Of a stretch of 64,000 bases of DNA, positions 1,176 through 40,259 are shown one piece after another; position 1 is the first letter of the stretch; the number at the start of each line of letters is the position of its first letter. Source of the DNA: a virus; the IMG/VR virus record IMGVR_UViG_3300027759_000051; one strand, written 5' to 3'. The notes beneath the pieces are model-generated. The model worked only from the letters and a program-made list of their open reading frames with translations. It ran no database searches and was not told the DNA's origin. The position numbers and the translations under genes were made by a program.

Positions 1176-1517
1176 AGTTAAAAGTTACTCCTTATAAAGA
1201 TTTCTGTCAAAAACCAAATATGAGATAGATAACTAAGAACAAAAGAACTGATTAAGAATAGAATCAGTAAAGCACCACTTTGGAAGGGTTCCAGGGAAAC
1301 CTTTTGCTCAGGATTCCCCAAACCAGGGCAGCACAAACTAGACCTCAGTAATTCGGGTCGTAGGTGGACTACCGGTTTTTGGCGCGCCGTTAGTTGTCTG
1401 ATCACCATAGCAGTCTCTTCCACCACCGTCAAGTAACTCGGTGGGTTTTTCTAAAATATTTGGATAAATCTATCTGAGTTACACTGTTAGGTAAACCTGA
1501 TATGGTATTTTTTACTT

Positions 1518-4225: not shown

Positions 4226-5698
4226 CTAGATTAAGTCACTCCCCATGACTTCACGGTGTGCTTTTCTCAACTGAGCAGGCCAATGAGATTTACCCTTGGT
4301 TCCGTTCTTCATTTTTTTGAGTTCAGCAACTGCTTCTTCAACGTATGGGAGAACAATGATGTTGTTCTTCTTGCAGAACTTGATGCACTGCATTGCCATT
4401 GAATCCATGTAGCCGTTACTTGCGCACACTGCACCATCTGTCACCCAAATGATCGGGGAGTTTGAGCGCTGCCGATTCTTCACTGCCCATTCAAGCGCAG
4501 GAAAGTCAACGCCATTGCCGTGACCAAAGGTCGGGAGTTCATTTACCATTCTTCCCTTGTCAGCAACTACCCACATGTTCGTCTTGTCGTCACCCTTGTC
4601 GGTGTAGACAGCGACGGTGGCACCAGGTCCATTCTCAACAATGCGCCTGATCTGATCATGGGTGAATGACATTGAACCTGAACCGTCAATGATGATGACG
4701 CCACCACTTCCTCTTGTGACCTTGTCAAAGATTCTCTTCTCGGGGTCGGTGAGTAGTCGGTGAATGCGACGTGGTGATTTACCCATGTTTGATGCAGTGC
4801 GCTTTTTGCCGATGTTTCCTTTTGTTTGTTTCGGCATTGGGCAATACTCAACAAGTAGTTTTTCCCAACTAGGAATACTGCCACCTGCGTTGGGAGTAAT
4901 ACCCTTATGGGGGCTTCCAGTAGCAGAACCTTCTTTTGATGTTCCGACACTTGATGGAGCGCCAGCAATTTTCCGGGGACGCCCACGCCCACGCTTTACT
5001 TCTTCACCGTCGCCGCTAGTCGTGAGAGTAGGCGCTACTGCCTCTTCTTCTTCTTCAGGTACAACAGATATGAGTCTGTCTACCCACTCAGCAATGCTTT
5101 CAGTGAATGAGAAACCGTGTGGCGCTAGTTTGGTACGAGGGTCTACTGCAGTACTAGCAAGACGGCCAGTCTTGTAAGCCTTGTTCATTTCTTTCACAGC
5201 ACGTTTTGAAATGTCGCCAAGGATTTCTCCCCACTGCTTATTGTGCCTACGTACTCCGTTAAGAAATGCTTTATTTGATGCAGTGCCAGCAGTTGCAAAG
5301 GTCATGCGCACAGCGCCAGCCCAATCTTTTGTTGCAACGATGCGTTCTCCATCTGCAGTTTCTCCACCGTCAGTGAGATTTCCCTTGACGTTGAATCCAG
5401 CTTTTTCGCAAAGAAGATTTACACGTAATTCTTCAACGACGATAAGAGAATCGTGCGATGCGATCTTACGATCTATCCAGTCATGCATTGAAATGGCAGG
5501 AGATACTTTTGCATGCATTAGTTCATGCGCTCTGATCACTCTTGCCAGTTCCGTGTCGTGCGATGGTGTTTTCATTTCCCGATTTACAATGTCGGTGTAT
5601 GGCTCCCCACGACGTGGGTTGCAGTCTCCTACAACCCACGTTCCGTGTTCGGAATCCTTACGACCCAACAATTCAGGTTCAGCGATAATGCGATTCAT
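4226..5698 (-). CDS. vWA-domain protein with N-terminal HEXXH motif and AT-hook
   Basis: HELMH; RGRGRPRK; MIDAS DGSGSM...WVTDG; adjacent to a MoxR-type AAA gene. Confidence 0.8.
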   Translation of the reverse strand: MNRIIAEPELLGRKDSEHGTWVVGDCNPRRGEPYTDIVNREMKTPSHDTELARVIRAHELMHAKVSPAISMHDWIDRKIASHDSLIVVEELRVNLLCEKAGFNVKGNLTDGGETADGERIVATKDWAGAVRMTFATAGTASNKAFLNGVRRHNKQWGEILGDISKRAVKEMNKAYKTGRLASTAVDPRTKLAPHGFSFTESIAEWVDRLISVVPEEEEEAVAPTLTTSGDGEEVKRGRGRPRKIAGAPSSVGTSKEGSATGSPHKGITPNAGGSIPSWEKLLVEYCPMPKQTKGNIGKKRTASNMGKSPRRIHRLLTDPEKRIFDKVTRGSGGVIIIDGSGSMSFTHDQIRRIVENGPGATVAVYTDKGDDKTNMWVVADKGRMVNELPTFGHGNGVDFPALEWAVKNRQRSNSPIIWVTDGAVCASNGYMDSMAMQCIKFCKKNNIIVLPYVEEAVAELKKMKNGTKGKSHWPAQLRKAHREVMGSDLI

Positions 5699-14518: not shown

Positions 14519-14941
14519 ATGAAGACATCACAAATTGTATCTACGGGGACTATGACAAATAGTTGCACTTGCACTGTCTACGATAGTGACAGTGGGGAAT
14601 ATACCGATGAACCTGCAGCGGAGTGCTACGGCGATTGTTGGGAATACGTCATAGAAGACTTTACGATGGTTACCGAAGAATTGCGAGACAACAACGAAAC
14701 TAATTGGTGGCGTGTTGAGAACTTGCAGTTATGGAATAGGCAAGCATCGGGCATGTTTCATGCGAAGACAGTTGCAGACATAATTCGAGGCATGACAGTG
14801 GATAGTGAATGGACGATGCGCTACACAGTCTTCAGTGACAGAATTGAATACTCACTAAGTCACCACGATGCGCCAATGGGTAGTAACTCAACACTACGTG
14901 CAGTGACTGAAGAGCAACGTGAAGAATGGGGACTCTACTAA
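14519..14941 (+). CDS. Hypothetical protein
   Basis: GAAAGGG SD; 'SHHDAPMG' motif. Confidence 0.75.
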   Translation: MKTSQIVSTGTMTNSCTCTVYDSDSGEYTDEPAAECYGDCWEYVIEDFTMVTEELRDNNETNWWRVENLQLWNRQASGMFHAKTVADIIRGMTVDSEWTMRYTVFSDRIEYSLSHHDAPMGSNSTLRAVTEEQREEWGLY

Positions 14942-37993: not shown

Positions 37994-38059
37994 TAGTATC
38001 TCTTTCTGTAGGTGTATGCTCAGTGTATCAGGGCGACTAATCTATACCGACTCTCTAGC

Positions 38060-38920
38060 AGTGGTACACATATCCCTAGTGGGGGGTGTACCCGTATGGC
38101 TACCCGTGTGGCTGCGAGCCTTGAGCCATAAGGCTGAGGGGTTGATGGGGGTAAGGGGTAGAGGGGCTATGGGCTATGGGGTATGGGCTATGGGGTATGG
38201 GGTATGGGCCGGATATAGGTGATGGGCTATGTGTGGTGTATCACTACGGCTATTGGTATGGGTATCTGTTCGGCTACGTACTGTGTCTCTATGTACTAGG
38301 GGGTGTACTAATGAGTGGGGGGTGGTGATACCTATGTGTAGTGGGTGATGGTATGTAGGTGCGGCTCAGATGGTGATGATGAGTGAGGGTGATGAGTAGT
38401 GATGAGATGTTATTGAGTGAGGGTGATGGTGTTAGGTGATGTGTGTAGAGGAGAGATGAGAGAGGGGTTAGGTAGATGAGTGAGAGAGAAGTGGTGAGTG
38501 ATGAATGAGTAGAGAGAGATGAGGGGTGAGGGAGTGAGGAGTAGATGATGATCAGTGATGATGACATACATAGATGAGTGATGTGATGTGTAGTGATGGG
38601 TATCGAGTACTGGATGAGTGATGAGTGATGGTGATGATGGATGGTGATGATGGATGATGATAGGAGTGAGTGATGAGTGATGATAGGTAGTGGTGATGAG
38701 TGATGATGATGAATGAATGATGATGATGATGATGAGTAGTAGTGATGAGTAGTAGTGATGAGTAGTAGTGATGATGAGTAGGTAGTAGGTAGTAGGTGGT
38801 GATGATGATAGGTAGTAGTAGCTAGTAGTACGTACGTATGTGTAGTAGTAGGTACTAGTAGTAGTGGTATGTATGTAGTGGTATAGGTGGTATGTACTAT
38901 GTATATGGTGAGGTACTAAC
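38060..38920 (+). repeat. Strand-asymmetric, C-depleted low-complexity tract
   Basis: Units drift GGG(C/G)TAT > GATGAG > GAT > GTAGTA; almost no C on the + strand from 38330 to 38920. Confidence 0.9.
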
Positions 38921-39030
38921 TACCCGCAGAGATACCCGCAATGCTGCGCGATTCCCTGATGACTAAGGCCTCGCCTCGCCGGGCTACGTCGTGTCTACTA
39001 CGTGTGTGATGTGCCATACGTATTGACGTG

Positions 39031-39068
39031 CGCTCTCACTCGATGACGACGCTCTCACTCGATGACGA
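39031..39068 (+). repeat. 19-bp tandem duplication
   Basis: CGCTCTCACTCGATGACGA x2. Confidence 0.9.
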
Positions 39069-39420
39069 CGACTGCCCTTGCCCTACTATCACTGCGCTTG
39101 TGATGTGCTGAGTGAGTGATGTATGTATGAAGTGTTTATGTTTTATTTTTCATCACGACAACGAGCTTGCCTTGCTGCTGTGCGAAAACGTCTGCGTTCT
39201 TTTCTATTTGCGAGGGGTGTTTGTTTCTATTCCTGAGGGGCGGTTTCCGGCTGTCGTTTTTGCTGGCACGATTATTTTTTAAGGCATTTCCATAGGCACT
39301 TTTTGACTTGACTTGCCTCTAGGTTTTTGGTAGGCTGGAGGTTGTAGGGTTCGTTCGGTTGATAGGTTATTGTGTTACCTATACACTATAGACATTACCT
39401 ATAAGTGGTTCAGCACACTG

Positions 39421-39527
39421 TAAGGTGCACCTAACATACTTTGTAAGGGCAACCTAACAGATGATGTATGGTCAGCCTAACGCTGCTTGTAAGGTTAGCC
39501 TAACATTAGGTATTAGGTCAGCCTAAC
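39421..39527. repeat. Five DtxR/IdeR-box-like repeats at exact 23-bp period
   Basis: TWWGG-N4-CCTAAC at 39421, 39444, 39467, 39490, 39513; copy 4 (TAAGGTTAGCCTAACATTA) matches TWAGGTWAGSCTWACCTWA at 18/19. Confidence 0.8.
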
Positions 39528-39555
39528 ACGAGGGTGCGAAGCCCCGACTGCCTTG

Positions 39556-39569
39556 CGAACGTGTGTTCG
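39556..39569. promoter_or_regulatory. SOS (LexA) box, Gram-positive/actinobacterial type
   Basis: CGAAC-GTGT-GTTCG, perfect CGAAC-N4-GTTCG. Confidence 0.7.
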
Positions 39570-39858
39570 TAGTGGGGGGGTAGCTATAAACCAAATTTTT
39601 GAGTCCCCATTCTTTTAAATAGATTTATCCAAAGTTGCTGCTACAGCAATCCATCTTGATAGTCGTTCCCGGTGAAGAGTAAGTTGCGATACGCAGTTTC
39701 CTCAATGCTGGTCAGCGTGCGCCTTGTGCGCCTCTCGGGGGGTTCTAGGCGCTCCGTGATGGACTGTAAGTGCCTGTCTGCCCTCATGTGACCCTGAACT
39801 AAATACGACGTGTACAAACGCCTCAGGGCCGATTGTGACCAGCTGTGGTAATTTTATA

Positions 39859-39867
39859 TTATCCACA
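39859..39867 (+). promoter_or_regulatory. DnaA box
   Basis: TTATCCACA; a single 9-mer, so chance occurrence is possible. Confidence 0.4.
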
Positions 39868-39918
39868 TATTGGGTATGCGCTATAAATATTGTAGGCAGC
39901 CTCGTCTTTCGGATAAAT

Positions 39919-40182
39919 TTATCCCAGAAGTGCTCGTCCTTCTTTTGAGATTTTGAGCGCTCGGGCGAGCCGTTTTCCATCTTTTGGCTGTTCTATGTAC
40001 CCTTTAGCAGATATCTCTGCCATCATCTCAGCAACCGTGGAGGTAGAAGGTACGCCCATCGCTTCTCCGATTTCTCGAATTGATGGGCTGTAGCCATTTT
40101 CTTTAGCGAACGAATCAATGAACCTGATTGCTTCTGTCATGCGCTCTTGCGTTTTTAGGTTTCTTTTAATATGAGCAGCCAT
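39919..40182 (-). CDS. LexA-like repressor, DNA-binding domain only
   Basis: 'FI.......GYSPSIREIG...G..STSTV.......KGYI.......RAL'; no S24 peptidase domain. Confidence 0.85.
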   Translation of the reverse strand: MAAHIKRNLKTQERMTEAIRFIDSFAKENGYSPSIREIGEAMGVPSTSTVAEMMAEISAKGYIEQPKDGKRLARALKISKEGRALLG

Positions 40183-40259
40183 TTAATCTCCGATGTGGTG
40201 GTTTATTTGAATAAATCTATCCGAGAAAGGCTCATTTTCAAAAAAATTTCGGAGGGTTT

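Follow-up and report, generated by a model that had tools for sequence, protein, structure and literature searches.

The 64-kb stretch of DNA analysed here (hereafter the window) belongs to a large, uncultured actinophage of lake origin, and it carries five tandem copies of an 18-bp dyad, TGTWAGG-N4-CCTAACA, set at an exact 23-bp period within a gene-free control hub. The motif keeps its anatomy in related phages, where it is conserved, and it is identical with an operator linked to iron-uptake genes in host-type genomes. From these observations we infer that a host protein binds the array, that it may do so cooperatively and that a phage process is gated in this way. Specifically, we regard it as an even call that the array serves as a cooperative landing pad for an IdeR-type repressor of the host, which would make the phage control hub iron-sensitive. 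More generally, the phage probably reads or manipulates the iron sensor of its host.

The window has a GC content of 44%, and its proteins are ~35% identical to those of Arthrobacter phages. It encodes a capsid protein, a primase-helicase, a polymerase-exonuclease and a class II ribonucleotide reductase, as well as the two WhiB proteins and the ferredoxin that the first-pass annotation of this DNA had reported. The array lies inside a gap of ~1.6 kb (about 38000-39640), a hub between the replication operon (primase-helicase, polymerase) and the early-gene region, and the flanking genes all run leftward. As that annotation had also held, no obvious gene start follows the array: there is no ORF of at least 40 aa at 38571-39641 on the minus strand or at 39295-39953 on the plus strand. 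Neither a gene nor a strong promoter adjoins the array in the window. A weak promoter-like element, a degenerate version of the phage's early promoter, points toward it (Table 1); promoter-like matches near the array are no commoner than in shuffled sequence (7 vs 6.4), and a promoter and terminator scan likewise stayed at shuffle level. Rfam searches of the region returned sub-threshold noise only. The first-pass annotation had put forward three possible roles, namely a decoy, a nucleoprotein scaffold at the genome end and iterons for a phage protein; nothing places a genome end at the array. Also within the gap are a G/A/T tract that is nearly free of C and whose repeat unit drifts, and a 19-bp sequence duplicated exactly in tandem.

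Table 1 Features of the array and its surroundings, in coordinates of the window
Feature	Position	Strand	Description
Unit 1	39419-39436	+	TGTAAGG-TGCA-CCTAACA; 14/14 to TGTWAGG-N4-CCTAACA
Unit 2	39442-39459	+	TGTAAGG-GCAA-CCTAACA; 14/14 to TGTWAGG-N4-CCTAACA
Unit 3	39465-39482	+	TGTATGG-TCAG-CCTAACG; 12/14, weakest unit
Unit 4	39488-39505	+	TGTAAGG-TTAG-CCTAACA; 16/19 to strict, 18/19 to degenerate iron box
Unit 5	39511-39528	+	TATTAGG-TCAG-CCTAACA; perfect TTAGG-N4-CCTAA core
SOS (LexA) box	39556-39569		Perfect CGAAC-N4-GTTCG; only one in the window, 0.06 expected
LexA-type protein	39919-40182	-	Stand-alone winged-helix DNA-binding protein, 87 aa; Pfam LexA_DNA_bind 2.2e-13; PDB LexA 3k2z 1.6e-7
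Promoter-like element, toward array	39359-39390	+	TTGATA-17-TACACT; ATAGGTTATT block common to the phage's early-promoter consensus; weak
G7 run, then GCTATAA	39574-39589	-	Reads TTATAGC-TA-C7 on the minus strand
G-rich, almost C-free low-complexity tract	38140-38920	+	10 C in 531 bases at 38370-38900
Exact 19-bp tandem duplication	39031-39068		CGCTCTCACTCGATGACGA, two copies
GGATAAATYTAT(CC) family	1462-1473, 39619-39630, 39911-39924, 40211-40222		Second operator-like family; copy at 39911-39924 is a perfect 14-bp palindrome
Single IdeR-type site	1485-1502		TGTTAGGTAAACCTGATA, 12/14; overlaps TGATATGGT extended -10-like element

In a pattern search of the 64-kb window, TWWGG-N4-CCTAAC, the pattern first noted, occurs five times (starts at 39421, 39444, 39467, 39490 and 39513), always on the plus strand and with spacings of 23, 23, 23 and 23 bp. 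Dinucleotide shuffles of the window predict 0.08 occurrences, and none of 100 shuffles reached five, which confirms the five-copy array with its exact period; the period was also recovered by Tandem Repeats Finder and by a second repeat search. The true unit begins two bases before this pattern and ends one base after it, and so amounts to the 18-bp dyad, which is followed by a 5-bp linker; the array spans 39419-39528. Pairwise identity among the five units reaches 89% in the arms but drops to 32% across the N4 spacer plus linker, so that the earlier description of a conserved phase with divergent intervening sequence is borne out. The right arm is nearly invariant, with CCTAA in all five units, while the left arm is an imperfect mirror of it (TGTAAGG three times, TGTATGG and TATTAGG once each) and reads CCTTA in three units, CCTAA in one and CCATA in one on the opposite strand. 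Elsewhere in the window, a single site of 12/14 at 1485 is at chance level (~0.4 expected).

Given the ease with which tandem repeats form and the abundance of repeats in this region, the array might be a recent tandem duplication with no function. However, its spacers and linkers show random-level identity though the arms are kept, and the motif and its period recur in diverged phages with the arms under purifying selection (see below). This reading is already disfavoured, and we find it hardly credible.

The conserved columns relate the units to the DtxR/IdeR family in a manner that differs from the classical iron box. The strict consensus of that box is TTAGGTTAGSCTAACCTAA, a 19-bp palindrome of four CCTAA repeats that takes two dimers; TWAGGTWAGSCTWACCTWA is its degenerate form. 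Against TTAGGTTAGSCTAACCTAA, units 1-5 score 13, 12, 12, 16 and 15 of 19; shifting the register by 5 bp gives 11-13 of 19. Unit 4 is the only one near the full 19-bp box, and the first-pass score of 18/19 for this copy holds against the degenerate form only, falling to 16/19 against the strict one (12-15 for the others). Moreover, the conserved columns are symmetric about another centre than that of the iron box. Since they are asymmetric about the iron-box centre, the units are not double-dimer boxes, and with strict scores of 12-16/19 we reject the canonical 19-bp DtxR/IdeR box as a description of them.

Judged by sequence, the core of the units, TTAGG-N4-CCTAA, is instead the sequence published as the binding site of one IdeR dimer. 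A monomer of IdeR recognises one CCTAA, and a dimer occupies either the first and third or the second and fourth repeats of the iron box, which corresponds to TTAGG-N4-CCTAA, with inverted CCTAA pentamers 4 bp apart (Marcos-Torres et al. 2021, PMC8464063). In the same study, a designed half-site binds a single IdeR dimer with a KD of 78 nM, single C-to-T changes inside a pentamer are tolerated, and the half-site rule calls for a T at position 3 and a C at position 1 or 2 of each pentamer (PMC8464063). All five right arms and four of the five left arms obey this rule. The exception is unit 3, whose left pentamer (CCATA on the other strand) is without the T at position 3 that IdeR needs by this rule (PMC8464063), and this counts against the IdeR reading. 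Like the phage unit, the published half-site consists of two inverted CCTAA pentamers with 4 bp between them (in G001, a 128-kb related phage described below, the arms read CTTAA). The phage array differs in that the palindrome is extended to 18 bp (TGT...ACA), that five such palindromes stand in phase, and that they stand in a phage; the published IdeR site has neither the TGT/ACA extension nor the C after CCTAA. The DtxR/IdeR-family link proposed by the first-pass annotation is hence retained in a modified form: it holds for the one-dimer core and for the same motif upstream of host iron-uptake genes, but not for 19-bp double-dimer boxes.

The host side of this link comes from a search for TGTTAGG-N4-CCTAACA in genomes of Actinomycetota at large, whose operator may not be that of the phage's own host. 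Among 401 genomes sampled across the phylum, we found 16 perfect sites against 1 for the control; among 61 genomes of one actinomycetotal order, sites with at most one mismatch numbered ~37 against 6 for the reversed control. The search was seeded from the phage consensus, and its independent parts are the enrichment over control and the gene context only. We examined 12 sites of the order search, either perfect or with a single mismatch, and found among their neighbours EfeU/FTR1 (L169), a ZIP transporter (L159) and an SBP_bac_6-type ABC binding protein (L160). Seven of 15 perfect-site loci adjoin genes of such iron- or metal-uptake type, namely EfeU (L169), a siderophore-interacting protein together with an Fe-siderophore binding protein (L172), and the same ABC binding protein as at L160 (L170, L171, L173, L174 and L175; six genomes in all); the remaining eight have unrelated neighbours or no clear ORF. 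For the recurrent ABC binding protein, the iron assignment is at family level only, with all NCBIfam matches below cut-off. By both enrichment and neighbours, the motif marks iron- and metal-uptake genes in host-type genomes, and together these two lines indicate that the phage unit is the operator of an iron-uptake regulon. Most simply, this regulon would be governed by an IdeR-type protein.

The host sites are stand-alone 18-bp palindromes that match the iron box at best at 12-15 of 19 positions, and the canonical 19-bp box is absent from five of these genomes when up to 3 mismatches are allowed. Stand-alone copies of TGTTAGG-N4-CCTAACA at iron-uptake genes are seen in G005, G014, G046, G021, G034 and other genomes (loci L158-L184). 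In these Actinomycetota the palindrome looks like a lineage-specific operator for one dimer. In the one genome checked for its regulator (G005), the only DtxR-family gene encodes a full-length homologue of IdeR (7B1V, E 7e-38), with a recognition helix altered at base-contacting positions: Pro39 to Ala, Thr40 to Ser and Gln43 to Glu (IdeR numbering). No IdeR-type site was found near host IdeR genes, hence no sign of autoregulation, and one small-genome order, picked blind, yielded no sites. Tandem pairs of the motif in hosts are spaced at 20, 21 or 24 bp, not 23 bp. The 23-bp period of the phage array, unlike these pairs and unlike the 19 bp of MntR arrays, is a further point against the IdeR reading.

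A pattern scan of IMG/VR reveals 23-bp-period arrays in related uncultured phages of at least six lineages, with GC contents of 43-61%. These arrays comprise five or six units in L007, L009, L021 and L026 (five in L026), four in L001 and L020, and three in G002, a 39-kb phage rated complete; L025 and L022 also carry the motif at 23-bp period, and G001 holds ~29 sites in ~ten arrays of two to six units at 41-55 kb. The array-bearing contigs and the window have a methylase, an SNF2 helicase and WhiB in common, and genes adjoining the arrays in the related phages are orphans. In three orthologous arrays of the L007 family, 9% of arm columns vary, compared to 30% in the N4 spacer and 62% in the linker (Fisher p = 6e-5). 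Arms that are kept while linkers drift point to selection on both the arms and their phase.

Neither the hub nor the array had a BLAST match among 50,697 records of cultured phages. Pattern scans of genome_contigs and metagenome_contigs gave no actinobacterial arrays among the matches listed, the majority of which were telomere-like or unrelated repeats. In a literature search, we found no published account of phages with arrays of IdeR sites. Two Treponema MAGs (L062, L118) contain 23-bp tandem repeats with GGTTAGGTCGACGTAACA-like units in 6 to ~15 copies; the likeness is superficial, the phylum is unrelated, and the repeats are probably an unrelated satellite.

Which protein might read the units can be narrowed by comparing the array-bearing phages. 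By BLAST and jackhmmer, WhiB is the only protein family found in at least three array-bearing lineages, and no sequence-specific DNA-binding protein is common to these phages, including any initiator or DtxR-like protein; the Pfam DtxR and LexA DNA-binding domains give no match in G001-G004. All 14 specified positions of the motif are nonetheless identical across phages of 43% to 61% GC. Such conservation across diverse phages, with no common phage-encoded binder, points to a conserved host protein as the binder.

These results bear directly on a phage-encoded alternative, according to which the units would be iterons or operators for a phage protein (an origin, a packaging site or the operators of a phage repressor) and their likeness to the host motif would be mimicry or coincidence. 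Five dyads at a 23-bp period do resemble ori-lambda, plasmid iterons and the spacing of lambda OR/OL, and the gene-free hub lies beside the replication module; DnaA-box-like sequences adjoin the G002 array, and one such box, TTATCCACA, is present in the window at 39859. However, the latter is 330 bp from the array and at chance level (~0.5 expected), no initiator gene is adjacent, the ~ten arrays of G001 are too many for one origin, and a phage-specific binder fits poorly with 14 fixed positions and no binder in common. As for other features of origin iterons, the period of 23 bp is in line with the ~22 bp typical of them, and AT-rich stretches are modest. We consider iterons or phage operators unlikely. 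In G002, DnaA-box-like TTATCCACA, TGTGGACAA and TGTGAACAA lie with three perfect SOS boxes and the array within ~250 bp (G002:C1:30850-31100, L029), a cluster that might represent an origin or serve as a master control region.

Arrays and LexA sites occur side by side in more than one phage. In the window, the SOS box begins 28 bp past the last base of the array, and perfect SOS boxes stand beside arrays in three lineages (G001, G002 and the window). G001 has six of them, all at 41.9-47.3 kb and four within 8 bp of an array, and one of the three G002 boxes overlaps the array end by two bases. Further elements accompany the arrays. In each of the seven G001 arrays that were checked, the perfect CCTAACA arm points toward a GTCCCG...CGGGR hairpin motif at a distance of 43-111 bp, and TTGTGAA-N4-TTCACAA sites, Rex- or CRP-like, adjoin some arrays of this phage. 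The 14-kb region concerned (L016; G001:C1:40900-55000) is made up of repeated cassettes with IdeR-type arrays, perfect SOS boxes, TTGTGAA-N4-TTCACAA sites and long A-tracts, and includes ~17 copies of a GTCCCG-AWTATAT-CGGGR palindrome. A TATAGC-C8/9 element similar to that of the window lies beside the arrays of L021 (about 5240-5262) and G004 (about 14750-14770), and C-runs adjoin the arrays in L022, L025 and G002 as well.

The LexA-type protein of 87 aa encoded near the array is itself a conceivable array binder: its gene is 390 bp from the array, and it has a weak secondary match to the Pfam DtxR N-terminal domain (E 8.7e-4, below cut-off), the sole match to that domain among the 119 small ORFs of the window. 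Yet the protein is clearly LexA-like and has more obvious targets in the SOS box and the GGATAAATTTATCC palindromes. Because array-bearing relatives are without that gene (G001-G004 have no LexA_DNA_bind match, and two of the four are rated complete), we judge it very unlikely that this protein binds the array. It may instead recognise the SOS box or the GGATAAATTTATCC palindromes, which flank its own gene. A search for relatives of the gene returned one unrelated high-GC phage, without arrays. The window also contains a second operator-like family, GGATAAATYTAT(CC), of which three copies ~295 bp apart sit at gene boundaries around the LexA-like gene; this family could be the target of the 87-aa protein.

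Taking the host repressor as the reader of the array, we propose that its five units would be tandem sites for the IdeR/DtxR-family iron sensor of the host, one dimer per 18-bp unit. (I) When Fe2+ is sufficient, repressor dimers would occupy neighbouring units, each 23 bp and ~69 degrees of helical turn beyond the last. (II) The loaded dimers would form a cooperative protein-DNA block in the gene-free hub, cooperativity sharpening the response. (III) Acting jointly with the LexA site next to it, this block would make a local event of the phage depend on both the iron status of the host and DNA damage. The gated event would most simply be transcription entering or leaving the hub, and possibly the start of replication.

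Alternatively, the same host protein might be bound with no regulation in cis, replicating arrays and SOS boxes acting as a decoy that soaks up host IdeR and LexA and thereby derepresses iron-uptake and SOS genes. That the units equal the host operator, that the array of the window has no adjacent gene, that G001 combines its ~29 sites with six SOS boxes and that the phage encodes Fe-S proteins all favour such a sponge, and very small host cells would presumably contain few repressor molecules. On the other hand, a sponge needs no exact period, yet the 23 bp are kept as linkers drift; the G001 arrays occupy intergenic cassettes in a fixed orientation toward another motif; and the window offers five sites only. 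We regard the decoy as a credible but rather doubtful reading. Because the period is kept in diverged phages, SOS boxes abut the arrays and the G001 arrays face hairpins, a cis-acting control element would fit better than a free decoy. A broader proposal, which we hold with similar reserve, is that of a lytic freshwater actinophage clade whose IdeR-site arrays and LexA sites either form a replication-amplified sponge, stripping both repressors and forcing iron import and SOS, or mark an iron-gated phage origin.

If the arrays do serve the host iron sensor, infection in iron-poor waters would be wired to host iron status. As a by-product, an 18-bp one-dimer IdeR-type operator appears to take the place of the 19-bp iron box in certain lineages of Actinomycetota, a point of importance when their regulons are predicted.

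Several known systems share parts of this arrangement. The lambda operators OR/OL, ori-lambda and plasmid iterons consist of dyads of 17-19 bp every 22-24 bp that are bound by dimers cooperatively. Unlike these, the array comes with no repressor/cro pair, initiator gene or defined AT-rich unwinding element, and its motif is that of a host regulon. Lambdoid tandem operators in particular, which overlap divergent promoters between repressor and cro-like genes, do not match the locus, where the flanking genes are all leftward, the nearest HTH gene is 390 bp off on the same strand, and the array is downstream of it. In corynephage beta, the tox operator is bound by host DtxR; it is one 19-bp box at one promoter, in a temperate phage, and controls a cargo gene. 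It is thus, similarly to the array, a phage-borne operator for a host iron repressor, but the array is phased and multi-site, belongs to apparently non-integrating phages (G001-G004 give no tyrosine-integrase match) and has no cargo gene alongside. The virulent Bacillus phage phi29 carries multiple Spo0A boxes and parS sites and reads host state with them. In phi29, too, multiple phage-borne sites are meant for global regulators of the host, though with another regulator and signal and with no strictly phased array.

The regulation of tox is also mentioned in PMC13001254. For the loading itself, a counterpart is Bacillus subtilis MntR, which loads cooperatively on four adjacent 18-bp dyads at mneP and gives a steep metal response (bioRxiv 10.1101/2024.06.28.601288). 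As proposed for the array, a DtxR-family regulator occupies tandem 18-bp dyad sites there; in contrast to the array, MntR activates a host efflux gene and senses manganese, and although the site length of 18 bp agrees, its period of 19 bp (1-bp gaps) against 23 bp leads us to reject an MntR-type array. In sum, known phage-borne sites for host regulators, such as the tox operator, SOS boxes and the phi29 Spo0A boxes, are isolated cases, whereas here a whole group of uncultured lake phages keeps strictly phased, putative iron-sensor arrays joined to LexA sites.
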